Source: Planctomycetota bacterium (GTDB lineage: Bacteria > Planctomycetota > J058). Taken from it: a stretch of 64,000 nucleotides of DNA. Below, one piece after another: positions 6,494 to 60,901 of this stretch. The translations under genes were made by a program, and so were the position numbers. The notes below the pieces were generated by a model, which saw nothing but the letters and a program-made list of their open reading frames with translations, had not been told where the DNA came from and ran no database searches. Each line of letters starts with the position of its first letter. Position 1 is the stretch's first letter. The stretch is from NCBI GenBank assembly GCA_023954375.1, contig JAMLIC010000006.1, positions 82,972 through 146,971 on the forward strand, written 5' to 3'.

Positions 6494-7941
6494 TGCTCGA
6501 CCTGGCGCTGGGGCTGCTCGTCGAGGGCGTCGGCGCCGAGCGCGGCGTCCTCGTGCTGCTGGGCGACGGCGGCGCCGCGGCCGAGACGGTCGCCCGCAAC
6601 ATCCGCGACGCCGAGCTCGAGGGCCACGACTTCGCCTACAGCCGGCGGATCGTCGAGGAGGTGGCCCGGACCGGCGCGCCGGTGCTCGTGCGCGACGCCT
6701 CGCGCGACCCGCGCTTCCGCGACGCCGAGTCGGTGGCCGGCCTGGCGATCCGCTCCGTGCTGGCGGTGCCGGTCGTCGGGCTCGCCGTGCTCTACCTCGA
6801 CGACCGCGCCGCCGCCGGCCGCTTCGACGACGCGTCGCGGGCCCTGGCCGAGCGCCTCGTGGACGAGCTCACGCCCTGCCTGGCCCTGATCCGCGACCGC
6901 GTGCGCCTCGAGCGCACGGTCGCCGGGCTGCGGGCGGCGCCGGCGAGCGATGAGCGCTGGACGATCGTCGGCGACGCCGAGCCCATGCGGCGCCTGCGGC
7001 GCGAGGCGGAGCGCGCTGCGCGCTGGCACCTGCCGCTCCTGATCGAGGGCGAGAGCGGGACGGGCAAGGCGCTCGTCGCGCGCGCCGTCCACGCCGCGAG
7101 CGGGCGGCGCGACGGGCCGTTCGTGGCCGAGTCGTGCGCGGCGATCTCGGACGAGCTCCTGCCGAGCGAGCTCTTCGGCCACGTGCGTGGCGCCTTCAGC
7201 GGGGCCGTCCGCGACCGCCAGGGGCTGTTCGAGACGGCGTCCGGGGGGACGCTCCTCCTCGACCAGGCCGCCGCCATGTCGCCCGCGCTCCAGGCCGCCC
7301 TCCTGCGCGTGCTCGAGGAGGGCGAGGTGCGGCCCCTGGGCGCGGAGAAGAAGCGGCGCGTCGACGTGCGCCTCATCGTGTCGACGAACGAGCCCCTCTC
7401 GGCGCTCGTCGCCGCCGGCCGCTTCCGCGAGGACCTGCTCTACCGGCTGAACGTCCTCCACCTGCGCGTGCCGCCCCTGCGCGAGCGGCGCGAGGACGTG
7501 CCGGCGCTCCTCGACCACTTCCTGCGCCGCTGCGCCGAGGAGGTCGGGCGGCCGCCGCCGGTCGTCGGCGACGCGGCGCGCGAGCTCCTCGTGGCCTTCC
7601 CCTGGCCGGGGAACGTGCGGCAGCTCGAGAACGAGGTGCGCCGGCTGGCGGCGCTGGGCGTGCGGCGCGTCCTGCCGCGCCACCTCACGGACGACGTCCT
7701 CGCCGGGGCGCGCGGCGGCGCGGGCGCCGCCCTGCCGGTCGAGCTGCGGCGGCTGATCGACGCCGGCAAGACGCTCGACGAGGTCCTGGGCGAGCAGGAG
7801 CGGGCGCTGATCGCCCAGGCGCTCGCGGCCTCGGGCGGGACCGTCGCGGGGGCAGCGCGCCTCCTCGGCCTCGAGCGGACGACGCTCCTGCGCCGGGCCC
7901 GGCGCCACGGCCTGCGCGCGGCGGACGGGGGCGGCGAGTGA
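6494..7941 (+). CDS. Sigma-54-dependent transcriptional activator with N-terminal GAF domain
   Basis: GAF-like N-terminus, then AAA+ domain with Walker A GESGTGK, the GAFSGA (GAFTGA-type) sigma-54 contact loop, ELFGH and an Arg finger. C-terminal Fis-type HTH (TVAGAARLLGLERTTLLRRARRHGL). The start is ATG 6494; an alternative is GTG 6385. Confidence 0.85.
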
Positions 7942-41412: not shown

Positions 41413-42357
41413 GTGACCCTCCTCACCCGCGACTTCCACCGGTCCGTCCGCCAGGCGCGGATGGCCTTCCTCGACGCGGTCGAGCCGCATCGCGCCGACC
41501 TGTTCCGCTACTGCCGCGGCCTCGCGCCGACCGTGTGGGAGGCGGAGGACCTGGTGCAGGAGACCCTCCTGCGCGCCTTCGCCAAGCTGGCCGAGTGCCA
41601 CTGGGACGTGAAGGACGCGCGGGCCTACCTCCTGCGCGCCGCGACCAACCTGTGGATCGACGGCCAGCGGCGCGCCGGGCGCGTGCGGCTCGAGGACGAC
41701 CTCGAGCCGGCCGCCGCCGAGGACGCCCCGCCGGCCGCCGAGGTCCGCGAGGCCCTCGCGGCGCTCGTGCGCAACCTGCCGCCCCGGGAGCGGGCGGCCG
41801 TGCTCCTCAAGGACGCGTTCGGGCTCGACCTCGACGAGGTCGCCACCTACCTCGAGACCACGCGCGGCGCGGTCAAGGCGGCGCTCCACCGGGGGCGGGC
41901 CCGGCTCGCGGCGCGCGGGGCCGACGCGGTCGCCGTCGAGGGCCGCCCCGACGGCCCCTCGGCGGCGCTCCTCGACCGCTTCTGCGCGCTGTTCAACGCC
42001 CGTGACCTGCCGGCCCTGACCGCGCTCCTCCTCGAGGACGCGACCGCCGAGGTCGTGGGCATGGTGCAGGAGTACGGCCGCGAGCAGGTCGAGAAGGGCT
42101 CGCTCTACCACACCATGTTCGGCGAGGAGGGGCGGCCGCGCGCGGCGCTCCTCGAGTACCTGGGCGAGCCGGTGGTGGTGATCTGGTACACCGGCCCCGA
42201 CGGCGTCGACGCCGTCGAGGACGTCCTGCGGTTCGTCGAGCGCGAGGGGAGGGTGGCGTCCTTGCGCTACAGCTACTTCTGCCCGGAGCTCATCGAGGAG
42301 GTCGGGGCGGCGCTGGGGGTGCCGGTGCGCACGAACGGGCACCGCTACCGGGCCTGA
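41413..42357 (+). CDS. ECF sigma factor with fused C-terminal SnoaL/NTF2-like extension (ECF41/ECF56-type)
   Basis: Sigma-70 region 2 (DLVQETLLRAF...YLLRAATNLWIDGQR) and region 4 (ERAAVLLKDAFGLDLDEVATYLETTRGAVKAALHRGRARL), then a ~120-aa SnoaL-like domain (LLDRFCALFNARDLPALTALLLEDATAEVVG...). No separate anti-sigma gene follows. Confidence 0.75.
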   Translation: MTLLTRDFHRSVRQARMAFLDAVEPHRADLFRYCRGLAPTVWEAEDLVQETLLRAFAKLAECHWDVKDARAYLLRAATNLWIDGQRRAGRVRLEDDLEPAAAEDAPPAAEVREALAALVRNLPPRERAAVLLKDAFGLDLDEVATYLETTRGAVKAALHRGRARLAARGADAVAVEGRPDGPSAALLDRFCALFNARDLPALTALLLEDATAEVVGMVQEYGREQVEKGSLYHTMFGEEGRPRAALLEYLGEPVVVIWYTGPDGVDAVEDVLRFVEREGRVASLRYSYFCPELIEEVGAALGVPVRTNGHRYRA

Positions 42358-43776
42358 TCACGTCGCGGCCGCCGCCGCCGCCCGCCGGCGGGCCCGCGCG
42401 GCCGCGGGGGCGGGGCCGGCGGTCAGGCCGAGGAGGACGACCCCCAGGAGGGCCGCCACGAACGAGGCCGCGAGCACGCCGACCTTCGCCGCGTCCTGGA
42501 GGCCGGGCGCGCCGGGGAAGGCCAGGCCGGCGATGAACAGCGACATGGTGAAGCCGATCCCGGCGAGCACCCCAACGCCGGCGAGCTGCCGCCACGTGGC
42601 GCCGCCGGGGAGCTCGCCCAGGCGCAGTCGCACGGCCACCCACGAGAAGGCGCAGATCCCCAGCGGCTTGCCGACGAGGAGGCCCAGCGCGACGCCCAGG
42701 AACACCGGGTCGAGGAGCCCGTCGAGGAGCCCGCGCCCGAGCGGGACGCCGGCGTTGGCCAGGGCGAACACGGGCAGGACGAACAGGCTCACGAGCGGCC
42801 CCATGCGCCGCTCGAGGCGCAGGAGCGGCGGGCGGGCGCGGGCGATCTCCTCCTCGACCGCCTCGATCATCACGAGCTGCCGGTGGTCGAGGTGCTGGCG
42901 CCCGGCGCTGCTGGCCAGGAGGTCGCGCAGCTCGCCCATGCGCTCGTGGAGCGCCCGGTCGGCGCGCCGCACCGGCGCGGCGGGGATCGTGAGCGCCATG
43001 GCCACGGCGGCGAGCGTGGCGTGCACCCCGGACTCGAGGAACCCGAACCACGCGACCAGCCCGACCGCGAAGTAGGCCAGCGGCCGCCGCACCCCCAGCA
43101 GGAGGTTCGCCGCCGCGGCGGCGGCGATCGCGCCGACCCCCAGGAGGAGCGGCGGGAGGTGGAGCTGGTCGGTGTAGAAGACGGCGATCACCAGCACGGC
43201 GCCGATGTCGTCGACGACCGCGAGCGCCATGAGGAAGACCTTGAGCGCGACCGGCACGCGGTCGCCGAGGAGCGCCAGGACGCCGAGGGCGAAGGCGATG
43301 TCCGTCGCCATGGGCACGCCCCAGCCGGCCGCGCCCGGGGCGCCCGCGTTGAGCAGCAGGAACAGGCCCGCCGGCGCGACCATCCCGCCCAGGGCCGCGA
43401 CGAGCGGCAGGGCGGCGCGGCGGAGGCTCGACAGCTCGCCCTCGACGACCTCGCGCTTGATCTCCAGCCCGACGGCGAAGAAGAACACGGCCATGAGGCC
43501 GTCGTTGACCCAGTGGTGGAGGGTCTCGCTGAGCGTCCAGGGGCCGAGCGACACGGCCAGCGGCGTGGCCCACAGCCGCGCCCAGGCGTCCGACCAGGGC
43601 GAGTTGGCGGCGAGCATCGCCGCGGCGGTGGCCGCCAGGAGGATCATCGCCCCGCGGGGGCTGTCCTTGGTCACCTCGCGCAGGTGGACCAGGAGGCGCT
43701 CGAGCGGGGTGCGGGCCGCGGGGTCCACGGGGGCGGTCGACCTCCACCGAACAGGAGCCGAACCCCCCGGCCCCAT
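42358..43776 (-). CDS. nhaA: Na+/H+ antiporter NhaA
   Basis: NhaA family signature WVNDGLMAVFFFAVGLEIKRE, with the Asp pair (VVDDIGAVLVIAVFYT) and the antiparallel discontinuous helices. About 12 TM helices. Confidence 0.85.
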   Translation of the reverse strand: MGPGGSAPVRWRSTAPVDPAARTPLERLLVHLREVTKDSPRGAMILLAATAAAMLAANSPWSDAWARLWATPLAVSLGPWTLSETLHHWVNDGLMAVFFFAVGLEIKREVVEGELSSLRRAALPLVAALGGMVAPAGLFLLLNAGAPGAAGWGVPMATDIAFALGVLALLGDRVPVALKVFLMALAVVDDIGAVLVIAVFYTDQLHLPPLLLGVGAIAAAAAANLLLGVRRPLAYFAVGLVAWFGFLESGVHATLAAVAMALTIPAAPVRRADRALHERMGELRDLLASSAGRQHLDHRQLVMIEAVEEEIARARPPLLRLERRMGPLVSLFVLPVFALANAGVPLGRGLLDGLLDPVFLGVALGLLVGKPLGICAFSWVAVRLRLGELPGGATWRQLAGVGVLAGIGFTMSLFIAGLAFPGAPGLQDAAKVGVLAASFVAALLGVVLLGLTAGPAPAAARARRRAAAAAAT

Positions 43777-57656: not shown

Positions 57657-58876
57657 TCAGGCCTCCCGCAGGAGCCGCGGCGCGGCGAGCGCCGCCCAGG
57701 CCGCGGTCGCCAGGAGGAACGCGGCCGCGGAGAGCCCGAGCCACAGCCACAGGCGGGCGGGGTCGAAGCTGACGGCGAGCCGCAGCGCCAGCGCGGCGAC
57801 GAGCAGGAGGCCGAGCGCGGCCACCTGCCAGGGGCGCCCGAGGAGGCGGCGCTCGTCGCCGGCGTGGGCCAGGGTCACGTGGACGGCGACCGAGAGCGCC
57901 AGCGCGGCGAAGCCGCCGAGGAAGAGCACGTGCAGGGCGCCCGTGCGCTGGGCCGGGAAGGCCGCGGCGAGGAGCAGCCCGACCGGGACGCACCAGGCGC
58001 CCAGCCACACGAGCCAGCGATGCAGGCCCGGCAGGGTCGGCCGGCGGGCGAGGCCCGCGGCGCCGACGAGGACGACGAGCGCGACGAGGCCGCGCACGCC
58101 GAGGCCGGCGCGCGCGTCCACGTACTCCTCCACGACGAAGCTCCCGGCGAGGAGCAGCGCCGCCAGGAGGTGCGAGGCGAGCGCCCGGCGGTCGCGCGGG
58201 CCGGCGTCGGGTGGCGCGGTCGCGCGCGTGATGAGCGGGATGACCATGCTCCCGACGCCCAGGATCAGGCCCACGAACATGCCCTGGACGAGGAGGCCCT
58301 TGCCGACGGTGTGCAGGGGGCGCCACTCGGGGCCGAGCGCGCGGAGCGCCATGAGGAGCGAGCCGGCCAGGCCCATGAGGAACGAGAGCGGCACCCACAC
58401 GAACGCGACGGGCGGCCGCCGCCGGGCCGCCGCCCCGCCGCGCAGGCGGCGGACGACGAACCCGACCAGCGTGGCGACGAGGACGAGCCAGGCGACCTGC
58501 GACCAGGCGAACCGCTCGAACACGGCGGCGATCGTGGTGAGGGTCGGCGCGAGGGCCGCCACGACGACGACGCCCGCCGAGGCCGGCGCGCTGCCCGTCC
58601 GGCGCGGGATGGCCGTGAGCAGGAAGCCGGCCGCGAAGCACATCATGAAGCCCTGGACCTGGGCGATCGCGTGGTCGGCCGACGAGAACGTCCCCACACC
58701 GGCCGTGGCCAGCAGCAGCCACTTGGCCACGCCGACCCAGCCCAGGACCACGCCGAGGGGGAACAGGAGCCGGTACGGCTCGCGGCGCCACAGCGGGGCG
58801 TCGTCGGTGAGCGGCGGAGGGACGAGGTCGTGGCCGGCGCCGACCGGCCCCTCGCAGCTCGCCTCCTCGGGGATCA
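57657..58876 (-). CDS. nnrS: NnrS-family haem-copper membrane protein
   Basis: About 12 TM helices. N-terminal PLWRREPYRLLFPLG. HAIAQVQGFMMCFAAGFLLTAIPRRTG corresponds to the NnrS HAHEMVFGF...GFLLTAVPNWTG signature. Confidence 0.6.
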
Positions 58877-59131
58877 CCTGGGTCGGGCTGGGCACGGGTC
58901 CTCCGGGGGACCCTCCTCGCAAGCCGGGGGCCGGGCGAGCGGCGCGCAGGTGCAAGCGGCGCGTCGCACGGGCGTGACCGGGTCACGCGCGCGTGACTCT
59001 CGAGGGGCCTCACCACGGCGGACACGGAGGAGCGCCCAGGGGTGTTCGTCCGTGCCCTCCGTGCCCCCCGTGGTGATCCTGGTCGGGCTTCAACGTCGAT
59101 TCTGGCGGGAGCCAGGGTCGGCGTTGCAGCC

Positions 59132-59350
59132 TGTCCTCGAAGCCCTTCCTCGCAGACGGCCGAGCCGCCTCCGAGCACACCTCACCGCGCCTTCGCAGCA
59201 GGAGCGTCAGGCGAGCCACCCCACGCGGCGCTGCCGCGGCCAAAGCCGCGATCACACCAGGGCCTGTCCTCGAACCCGTCTTCGCAGACGGCCGAGCCGC
59301 CTCCGAGCACACCTCACCGCGCTTCCGCAGCAGGAGCCTCAGGCGAGGCC
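59132..59350. repeat. Two direct copies of an ~86-nt unit (59132-59217, 59265-59350; period 133 nt)
   Basis: Unit is tgtcctcgaa(g/c)cc..tcgcagacggccgagccgcctccgagcacacctcaccgcgc(c)ttc(c)gcagcaggagc(g/c)tcaggcgag, about 93% identical between copies. The spacer carries gccgcgatcacac, which also occurs at 59474 at the 3' end of the RidA-domain gene. Confidence 0.7.
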
Positions 59351-59387
59351 GAGGAGGGCGAGGCGATGCGGCGCGAAGGCGAGGGAC

Positions 59388-59445
59388 GGGGCCCCCGGCC
59401 CCCCCCCCCCCCCCGGGGGGGGGGGGCCCCCCCCCGCCGCCCCCG
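59388..59445. repeat. Extreme homopolymer palindrome C16-G12-C9
   Basis: ggggcccccggCCCCCCCCCCCCCCCCGGGGGGGGGGGGCCCCCCCCCgccgccccc lies about 40 nt downstream of the stop of the minus-strand AmnA-RidA gene. Confidence 0.8.
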
Positions 59446-59485
59446 ACGCACCGCAGCGCCCCGCCATCCTCGGCCGCAGCCGCGA

Positions 59486-60901
59486 TCACACTAGCGCGAT
59501 CACCTTCAGCTCCACCGCGATCGGCGTGGGCAGGGCCGAGATCGCCAGCGTCGTGCGCGTCGCGCCGACCGGGGCGAAGTACTCCTTGTAGACCGCGTTG
59601 TAGGCGGCGAAGTCGCGGTCCATGTCGATCAGGAAGGCGGTCACGTCGATGACCTTGTCGAGCGACGAGCCTGCCGCCTCGAGGATCGCCTTCACGTTCT
59701 CGATCGTGGCCCGGGTCTGCGCCGCGGCGTCGTAGGCCTGCGGCCGCCCCTGCGCGTCGCGCACCGGCCCGCCGGGGATCGCGTTCGTCCCCGGCTGACG
59801 GGGGCCCACGCCCGAGAGGTAGAGGAGGTCGCCCACGCGGCGCGCGTGCGGGTAGGCGCCGACCGGCGCGGGCGCGCCGCTGGCCATGACGACCTCGCCC
59901 CCCGGCGCGGACGAGGGCGCGGACGCCGGCGCGGCCGCAGGCGCGCCACCGGCGCGCGGCGCGGGGTCCGCCGGGGCGGGCGCGCCGGGGGCCACGCCCG
60001 CCGAGAGGACGTTGCGGTCGCCCCGGAAGACCTCGACGTCCTCCTCGTCGAACTCCTTGCTCGCCGCCGGCCGCGTGCTCGGGGCCAGGCCGACGAGCGC
60101 GGCGCCGGTGCCCCACACAGGCTGGTACTCGAACACCGTCCCCTCGTAGTCGTTGTGCTGGCCGAGGAACGACGCCAGCCACCAGACCGCCTTGAGCTTG
60201 CTGTCGGCGTTGGCCTGGGCGCTGAACTCGCGCGCGAGCTGAGCCACGTCCTCGAGGCGCCCCTCGGCCAGGAGCTCCAGGAGCTTCCGGTTCCACTCGT
60301 CGTCCTTGAGCGAGGAGATCCGGTCCTCGCGCGGGTCGATCTCGTGGGTGAACAGGCGGTTCGAGAGCGCCGTCACGGCGACGGCCACCGCGCGCCGCCC
60401 GCCCCGCTCGACCGCGTCGCGGGCGGCCTTGCCGAGGACGAGCGTCTCGGCGCGGTCCGCGTACATGTTGCACGAGACGATCGTCGCCGGCAGCCGGTTG
60501 TCCGGGTTCAGGAGCTTCAGCGCCACGATCGAGCCGGTGTCGATCGGGAAGCCCTTGTAGGCGACCGTGCGCGCGTGGAGCCCGCGGGCGCGGGCGCAGG
60601 CCTCGTACTCCTTCGCGAAGCCGGCGTCGATCCGGAACCGGTAGGGCAGGTCGCCGAGGTCGTGCCACTCCGGGTCGACGTGCACCCACTCGGGCTCGGG
60701 GTCGGCCTGGAGCTGATGACCGATCACGCTCGGCCACTGCGTGCTGTAGAGCACGAGCAGGTCGGCGTCCGTCGCCTCGAGCTCGGCGCGCACCCGGTCG
60801 TAGCCGGCGCGCAGCTTCTGCCAGGCGGGCGAGCGCTCGGGCGCCAGGAGCGGGTGCGGCATGCCCGCGACGATGTAGCCGCGCACGACCTTGCCGCTCA
60901 C
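59486..60901 (-). CDS. amnA: 2-aminophenol 1,6-dioxygenase alpha-subunit-like protein (LigB family) fused in frame to a C-terminal RidA/YjgF-family domain (putative 2-aminomuconate deaminase)
   Basis: GTG start overlaps the AmnB stop (GTGA). The AmnA-like region carries LVLYSTQW, GFPIDTGS, EIDPREDRI and DDEWNRKLLEL. An Ala/Pro linker (GAPAPADPAPRAGGAPAAAPASAPSSAPGG) follows. A complete RidA domain comes next (MASGAPAPVGAYPHARRVGDLLYLSGVGP...TRTTLAISALPTPIAVELKVIA). There is no stop between the domains. The RidA part has its own internal ATG at 59887. Confidence 0.75.
   Translation of the reverse strand: MSGKVVRGYIVAGMPHPLLAPERSPAWQKLRAGYDRVRAELEATDADLLVLYSTQWPSVIGHQLQADPEPEWVHVDPEWHDLGDLPYRFRIDAGFAKEYEACARARGLHARTVAYKGFPIDTGSIVALKLLNPDNRLPATIVSCNMYADRAETLVLGKAARDAVERGGRRAVAVAVTALSNRLFTHEIDPREDRISSLKDDEWNRKLLELLAEGRLEDVAQLAREFSAQANADSKLKAVWWLASFLGQHNDYEGTVFEYQPVWGTGAALVGLAPSTRPAASKEFDEEDVEVFRGDRNVLSAGVAPGAPAPADPAPRAGGAPAAAPASAPSSAPGGEVVMASGAPAPVGAYPHARRVGDLLYLSGVGPRQPGTNAIPGGPVRDAQGRPQAYDAAAQTRATIENVKAILEAAGSSLDKVIDVTAFLIDMDRDFAAYNAVYKEYFAPVGATRTTLAISALPTPIAVELKVIALV

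Follow-up and report, generated by a model that had tools for sequence, protein, structure and literature searches.

Introduction

The closest described counterparts of the DNA studied here are short intergenic repeats. ERIC/IRU sequences are enterobacterial imperfect palindromes of ~127 bp, and RIMEs are Rhizobium-specific intergenic mosaic elements. The mycobacterial MIRUs are reportedly 46-101 bp long, with a small in-frame open reading frame (ORF) and with overlaps of both the upstream stop codon and the downstream start codon. REPs are single stem-loops of 20-40 bp that carry a GTAG or CGTC tag and occur in high copy number; the CGTC stems have 8-9 bp with A/T first pairs, and palindromes tagged with GTAG or CGTC have also been reported in Planctomycetes (PMC3733652). 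In this study, we analysed a window of 64,000 nucleotides (nt) from contig JAMLIC010000006.1 of a Planctomycetota bacterium (positions 82,972 to 146,971), in which a hairpin-rich element occupies much of the gap between a gene for a LigB-RidA fusion protein and nnrS.

This region is likely to be made up of two units, in tandem, of a dispersed intergenic repeat that is modular and rich in hairpins and that would represent a small undescribed family of uncultured Planctomycetota with ~76% GC. The same non-coding sequence was found at three unrelated loci, and orthologous sites of relatives differ in its presence or absence, as is generally seen for dispersed repeats. The units are modular, overlap the stop codon of the upstream gene and keep their base pairing between copies. 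Because copies lie at unrelated loci of a second genome, the metagenome-assembled genome (MAG) ACE_PLA31 (GCA_019636275.1), and the nnrS locus of that genome is empty, we regard the element as a dispersed repeat polymorphic for presence and absence and not as a local duplication of a gene end.

The element behaves like the ERIC/IRU, RIME, MIRU, REP and MITE classes and has the defining features of none of them. With ERIC/IRU and RIME it shares a length of 100-250 nt, large imperfect palindromes, a non-coding nature, a position in transcribed intergenic space after genes, dispersal at unrelated loci, variability among relatives, size variants due to indels and the lack of an associated transposase. 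It differs from both in having no sequence similarity to either, very few copies, a head that supplies a stop codon, a perfectly paired hypervariable tip and tandem units. The likeness to MIRUs lies in the high-GC host, the short tandem intergenic units between co-oriented genes and the unit end that overlaps the upstream stop (3 of 3 loci); however, the units of the element have 133-235 nt and are dominated by hairpins, no frame is conserved, and the nnrS start lies ~230 nt past the distal unit. Like REPs and BIMEs, for which roles in mRNA stabilisation and termination have been proposed, it consists of extragenic palindromes just past stop codons, but it is a 235-nt composite with 15-bp G/C-rich stems, few copies and no consistent tag, the hairpin P2 starting with CGTC in one ACE_PLA31 copy (L006) and not in the other (L007) or in the window. 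Finally, it resembles MITEs such as Correia/NEMIS and RUP in being non-autonomous, 100-300 nt long, structured, co-transcribable, able to alter gene ends and polymorphic for presence and absence.

Two other classes were rejected. A CRISPR array needs at least three short identical repeats with unique spacers, and here there are two long units without regular unique spacers, in agreement with the initial annotation of this region. A diversity-generating retroelement does not fit either, since the units do not code for protein and their differences are not confined to adenines.

Results

Anatomy of the two tandem units

The LigB-RidA gene and nnrS are both encoded on the minus strand. When the nnrS start was set by homology at the GTG 58895-58893 (minus strand), which gives a protein of 412 aa as in the orthologues, the gap between the two genes extended over 58896-59485, or ~590 nt, longer than the 510 bp first assigned to it. 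In the 5' to 3' direction of the minus strand, two units of one modular element, arranged head to tail, open the gap. The modules of a unit are a head (CTGGTGTGATCGCGGCTGCGG), a hairpin domain and an 86-nt tail, and the TGA within the head is the LigB-RidA stop codon at 59488-59486. The proximal unit (59494-59262, minus strand) is of full length, and the distal unit (59261-59129, minus strand) has the head, only a short hairpin and an 87-nt tail. The features are as follows:

59486-59488, minus strand: TGA stop of LigB-RidA (from translation), inside the element head GTGTGATCG
59468-59494, minus strand: proximal head CTAGTGTGATCGCGGCTGCGGCCGAGG, repeated at 59234-59260 (85%)
59347-59475, minus strand: P1, long imperfect palindrome of the proximal unit, with its 5' arm at ~59446-59475 and its 3' arm at ~59347-59388, the arms collinear with P1 of L006 and L007
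59387-59445, minus strand: G/C-only hairpin tip holding C16, G12 and C9, in the place of P2 and the linker of the L006 and L007 copies
59262-59347, minus strand: proximal tail, 86 nt, 93% identical to 59129-59215 (nhmmer E 6e-24)
59234-59260, minus strand: distal head CCTGGTGTGATCGCGGCTTTGGCCGCGG, 2 mismatches to the 21-nt head consensus
59216-59241, minus strand: short hairpin CGCGGC-AGC-GCCGCG of the distal unit, in the place of the ~135-nt P1 domain of full copies (from alignment and fold)
59129-59215, minus strand: distal tail, 87 nt (nhmmer E 2e-24)

The two tails form a direct repeat of 87 nt (59129-59215) and 86 nt (59262-59347) with 93.1% identity, whose starts are 132-133 nt apart. 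The repeat of two ~86-nt units noted in the initial annotation is thus real, with coordinates that were ~3 nt off. A 36-mer core of the repeat has exactly two occurrences in the window (0 expected), and no further copies were found within the 64 kb by pattern search, blastn or nhmmer --max. The P1 palindrome of 129 nt is 73% complementary and gave a self-inverted blastn match of 132 nt (E 1e-15). Judged from the alignment, the body of the distal unit appears to be an internally deleted or variant form of the P1 domain. No reading frame is kept between the copies, as the frames shift, and a scan of the gap for promoter-like sites found none.

The 13-mer GCCGCGATCACAC is present at 59245-59257 and at 59479-59491. 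Taken alone it is within chance, since at least two matches were obtained in 8 of 100 shuffles; the similarity around it extends over 27-30 nt at 83-85%, and only 6 of its 13 nt fall inside the LigB-RidA ORF. A copy of the gene end had been reported before, at 59232-59244, and read as a partial duplication of the gene 3' end. The copy exists, at the position given here, and the 13-30 nt shared are the head of the unit: the element supplies the last two codons and the stop of the gene.

Copies in a second genome and empty sites

A 24-mer from the tail was used to scan one genome per species for 185,579 species. It matched exactly two further places, both in ACE_PLA31 and on different contigs (L006 and L007). 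To judge from its accession series and isolate name, the probable source of this MAG is a set of acesulfame-degrading enrichments that had been inoculated with activated sludge from Hong Kong (PRJNA725625). The whole ~235-nt element aligns at both places (nhmmer E 1e-21 to 1e-42). The L006 copy follows a gene for an M18 aminopeptidase and the L007 copy follows a gene for an NtrC-type sigma-54 response regulator. At these two loci and in the window alike (3 of 3), the element lies downstream of an ORF and in the sense direction relative to it.

The head differs from the 21-nt consensus by 2 mismatches in L006 (6635-6655) and by 0 in L007 (4903-4923). In all three loci, the TGA of the upstream ORF falls in the head, and the last 2-3 codons differ from those of the orthologues. 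RidA of the window ends in VIALV before the stop, and its orthologues in L001 (MAG GCA_026184275) and L008 (ACE_PLA31) end in VIARA; the M18 protein upstream of the L006 copy ends in HFCLV, and its relatives end in HFS or HFGA.

Empty sites were found at two of the loci. The gap at the nnrS locus has 121 nt in ACE_PLA31 and 347 nt in GCA_026184275, in both without units and homopolymers, and the similarity between the window and the orthologues stops exactly at the last two codons of RidA and returns ~385 nt further on. The M18 site is filled in L006, and the complete intergenic regions of L013 and L014 are without a copy. Among the origins suggested in the initial annotation, the footprint of a mobile element fits these copies and the empty nnrS locus best.

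Over a 71-nt core, and thus with small numbers, the proximal tail is 94.4% identical to the L007 copy and 90.1% identical to the L006 copy. Between the genomes the tails are 94-97% identical, as compared with 88% for the nnrS genes of these genomes. The tail identities suggest recent spread or constraint and speak against a recent local duplication.

Related sequences were observed beside these copies. At the M18 site of L017, a more distant relative, there is only a head-like module, in opposite orientation. Head-like modules GTGTGAMCGACGGCTRCGGCCGCGG at L017 2800-2965 (minus strand) and L007 5205-5440 lead into quite different bodies. The L017 body consists of 47-nt tandem repeats, its head-like module lying 3 nt past the stop of another ORF that ends in ELV, and in L007 5205-5440 the same head variant opens a second, different unit, in which 18-20-nt GCCTCGGCCTCCGCGCCCTC tandem repeats come after a GC hairpin of 21 bp. 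We consider the family modular because L017 and the second L007 unit join a head variant to different bodies, and this arrangement suggests a wider modular family that shares only the head. In the element-free gap of L001, GGAAGGCGCGGTGAG at 2530-2550 matches 14 of 15 nt of CGAAGGCGCGGTGAG in the tail, which may be the relic of an old copy or chance.

Predicted structure of the element

The three full copies fold alike as RNA, with energies of -154 to -169 kcal/mol and z of -4.3 to -4.6. The window copy reaches -168.5 kcal/mol (z -4.4), which bears out the extremely stable hairpin predicted earlier for the homopolymers. P1 is a long stem closing ~135 nt. In L006 and L007 it encloses a three-way junction with a perfect 15-bp P2 and a small P3, and the tail forms two further hairpins.

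L006 was projected onto the L007 fold and the 87 pairs were compared. Seventy-one pairs were unchanged and 5 were broken; in 6, a single partner differed, each time giving G·U on the sense strand, and 5 were compensatory. Four of the compensatory pairs are in P2 and one is in P1, and none of the 5 broken pairs is in P1-P3. P1 of the window shows one further compensatory change, from UGCCG:CGGCA to UGCGG:CCGCA. P2 is hypervariable and yet perfectly paired, with 4 of 4 changes compensated between L006 and L007, and it is wholly replaced in the window. Sense folding was better than antisense folding in 4 of 4 units, with 5-13 versus 0-1 G·U pairs, and the consensus fold of the tail gave -32.6 kcal/mol for sense versus -21.6 kcal/mol for antisense. 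In P1 and the perfect 15-bp tip hairpin, every change between copies is compensatory or yields G·U, which favours a structure formed on the sense strand.

The C16-G12-C9 tract

The homopolymers C16 (59399-59414), G12 (59415-59426) and C9 (59427-59435), read as G9-C12-G16 on the minus strand, were confirmed at the place where they had first been noted. They are the only runs of at least 8 nt in the 64 kb, the next longest having 7, and they lie at the tip of the 129-nt palindrome. A segment of 63 nt in the other copies (P2, linker and P3) is replaced in the window by 57 nt of pure G/C, in which a P3-like hairpin, GGGGCC-GGG-GGCCCC, is kept.

It is about an even call whether the tract is P2, a hypervariable hairpin, in an extreme form or an artefact of base calling or polishing at a hairpin that is difficult to sequence. 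In the second case, the tract and perhaps the whole 57-nt tip would come from sequencing, assembly or polishing, and the true sequence would be the P2/P3 three-way junction seen in ACE_PLA31. Two-colour Illumina chemistry calls G on signal loss. The mechanism, to which we give the same even chance, would be that reads fail in a perfect GC-rich hairpin and decay to poly-G from both directions, and the order G12-C9 on the plus strand is as expected from the poly-G tails of two read directions. Long runs nowhere else in the window and a replacement of near-equal length exactly at a perfect 15-bp hairpin agree with such an origin, as do nine Logan contigs of relatives that break within hairpins of the RidA-nnrS intergenic region. 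A precedent keeps the assembly artefact raised in the initial annotation a live possibility: L015, a Logan contig (SRR33594878) from a related organism, runs out in at least 13 G at the very point where a GC-only palindrome begins in two other assemblies. Over its last ~15 nt, L014 and L016 have the palindrome GGGGCGCGCGTGCGCGCCC ... GGGCGCGCACGCGCGCCCC after the M18 aminopeptidase gene, and L015 is thus an example of the poly-G artefact in the lineage. However, runs of 9-16 nt are below the usual assembly k-mers, and poly-G tails usually give dead-end contig tips, whereas a C-G-C triple lies inside the contig here. On either side of the tract, the sequence lines up with that of the other copies without a change of order or orientation. 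Like the tip in whose place it stands, the tract can pair with itself, and it retains the P3-like hairpin; G/C-only stems are common in these genomes.

One such stem was observed elsewhere in the window. At 42355-42425, a TGA is followed by a 59-nt G/C-only hairpin at a gene end, the start of which (TGATCACGTCGCGGCCGCCGCC) is faintly head-like. No G/C-only stretch in the window is longer than this one, which the gap tract equals.

Alternative explanations

Selection on function, rather than selfish spread, could also account for the element, as a cis-acting RNA of the 3' untranslated region. It would then serve as a terminator without U-tract or an insulator between the amn-like operon and nnrS, as a barrier to exonucleases or as a module that binds a protein or a small RNA. 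We regard this as unlikely, although it fares better than the other accounts of the element's origin considered below. The sense orientation at all three loci is consistent with it, and the only downstream gene identified in ACE_PLA31 (in L006) is on the same strand; the sense-strand pairing kept through compensatory and G·U changes, and the identity of the tails above that of nnrS, would also be expected. On the other hand, close relatives do without the element at the same locus, copies are few, and recent spread predicts the high similarity of copies equally well. The terminator proposed in the initial annotation is not present in its canonical form, as a terminator scan of 58700-59700 gave 0 sites, the hairpins there having no T-run after them. 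The small RNA proposed with it found no counterpart either: a covariance scan with Rfam 15 (E<=1) of window 58000-60500, L006 and L007 returned only sub-threshold chance matches, namely an S4 leader with 23 bits versus 34.7 required and miRNA models on an unrelated hairpin, and a tRNA/tmRNA search found none.

We judge it very improbable that the head and palindrome are a site-specific recombination site, either attC-like in the style of integron cassettes or an att core, recognised as a folded single strand. The imperfect palindrome has a variable tip and starts at a stop codon as attC sites do. A head-like sequence of ~15 nt recurs at the 3' side of the unit (6639-6653 and 6877-6891 in L006; 59468-59494 and 59234-59260 in the window), and the stops of the empty sites are weakly head-like (TAG-TCGCGGCT in L013 and ATCGCGCGGGC in L008). 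This recurrence and the weak likeness hint at recombination at a short core and at no more than that. However, the sequence has no R''/R' boxes (RYYYAAC...GTTRRRY), the host genes belong to the conserved core and keep their synteny, unlike cassettes, and no integrase was found among the neighbours; the element was accordingly not classed as an integron attC.

It is scarcely credible that a purely local tandem duplication or recombination of the RidA 3' end and its downstream sequence, as initially proposed, produced the units without a dispersed family. The units are adjacent and head to tail with a tail spacing of 132-133 nt, and the gene itself has, a little further upstream, a sequence similar to the head motif (..GTGATCGCGC). 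However, another genome has full copies at two loci unrelated to this one, and the orthologous RidA genes have other ends and no such motif. On the small numbers of the 71-nt core, the distal tail is also nearer to L007 (97.2%; 2 differences in 71) than to the tail of the adjacent unit (93.0%; 5 in 71).

Flanking genes and the rest of the gap

The window has a GC content of 76.4% over 64 kb. Its NnrS is an exact match to MCO5166477.1, the closest NnrS homologue is 92% identical, and the NnrS matches place the organism among uncultured planctomycetes. The gene order LigB, LigB-RidA, NnrS, cyclase was also found in the two MAGs GCA_026184275 (L001) and ACE_PLA31 (L008). The LigB-RidA gene (59486-60901, minus strand) joins a LigB-family (AmnB-like) dioxygenase subunit to a RidA/L-PSP domain via an Ala/Pro-rich linker, which is ~11 residues longer in the window than in the two related MAGs. 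The Pfam RidA domain extends to residue 469 of 470. In L004, from a relative with 74% identity, RidA and NnrS are called as one ORF of 603 aa.

Operator-like palindromes (GTCACGCGCGCGTGAC-CC-GGTCACGCCCGTGCGAC) are located at 58963-58997, just upstream of nnrS. They are kept in the window, L001, L008 and L009, and the rest of the gap is not conserved. The palindromes are candidate sites for the binding of an nnrS regulator; to our knowledge, they are unlike FNR/NnrR or NsrR boxes.

A second, unrelated hairpin element is present at 59010-59076 and also in L001 (2390-2480), with arms made of the tandem 9-mers CACGGAGGR / TCCGTGYCC. It is larger in GCA_026184275 and missing from the nnrS locus of ACE_PLA31, and the Logan contigs L002 and L003 begin within it. 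Other contigs start upstream of nnrS at 182 nt (L009, L010, L020 and L021) or 138 nt (L011). L009, the only one of these whose start was read, opens with what seems to be a related repeat of the CCTCTGCG type. The RidA-nnrS gap seems to collect hairpin indels.

Discussion

If the region is a dispersed intergenic repeat, a full unit of ~235 nt would begin with the head CTGGTGTGATCGCGGCTGCGGCCGAGG, which brings Leu-Val-stop or Val-stop and thereby ends the upstream ORF. The P1 stem closing a variable tip and the 86-nt tail would follow. The element would have entered, by insertion or copying, the stretch that separates the operator-like palindromes of nnrS from the final gene of the amn-like operon, in the lineage of the window and not in its relatives, and it may have spread as a non-autonomous mobile or recombining element. 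It would be transcribed as the 3' end of the upstream mRNA and fold on the sense strand, where, to go by the predicted fold, it probably acts at most as a 3' stem-loop barrier, that is, as an mRNA stabiliser or a terminator without U-tract. We infer the exact boundaries and the mechanism, because no insertion event was caught between near-identical genomes.

That missing event is among several points that weigh against a dispersed mobile repeat. The known copies amount to four units at three loci in two genomes, and the family may be very small. Two scans of JGI metagenomes, with the tail 24-mer and with a 28-nt gapped tail pattern, gave no match; a scan of viral contigs and blastn against plasmids and phages found no copies, and nhmmer on the other ~158 kb of sequence found no more. 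The neighbours of the ACE_PLA31 copies are ordinary genes without transposase or integrase, and no parent insertion sequence or mobilising enzyme was seen among the neighbours. The inverted repeats are the internal P1 arms and the head and tail ends are not complementary, so there are no terminal inverted repeats as in a MITE; the flanking direct repeat GATCGCGGCYGCGGC is the same in the window and L006, where a target-site duplication would be specific to the locus. A profile of the open antisense frame of the four copies, searched against 5.8 billion called proteins, found nothing, which together with the shifting frames also led us to reject a small protein-coding gene. The advantage of sense-strand folding is in part a matter of G+T-rich composition.

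A bolder proposal is that the element is a structured mobile unit which, in the form of RNA or single-stranded DNA, specifically targets the 3' ends of ORFs, its own Leu-Val-stop head replacing the native last codons and P2 acting as the determinant of specificity or recognition. We think this improbable. Nothing here points beyond the known class of intergenic mosaic repeats. If the proposal were true, Planctomycetota would harbour a mobilisation system not described before or an RNA module of 3' ends.

For annotation, the dispersed repeat means that the last codons and the stop of LigB-RidA derive from the repeat, and that the apparent gene-end duplication is no gene fragment. With regard to assembly quality, C16-G12-C9 should be flagged as unverified, and the intergenic region repeatedly breaks the short-read assemblies of relatives. 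The element, with its two unusual traits of a head that supplies a stop codon and a hypervariable tip hairpin with compensated changes, adds a small undescribed family to the poorly charted repeats of uncultured high-GC Planctomycetota.

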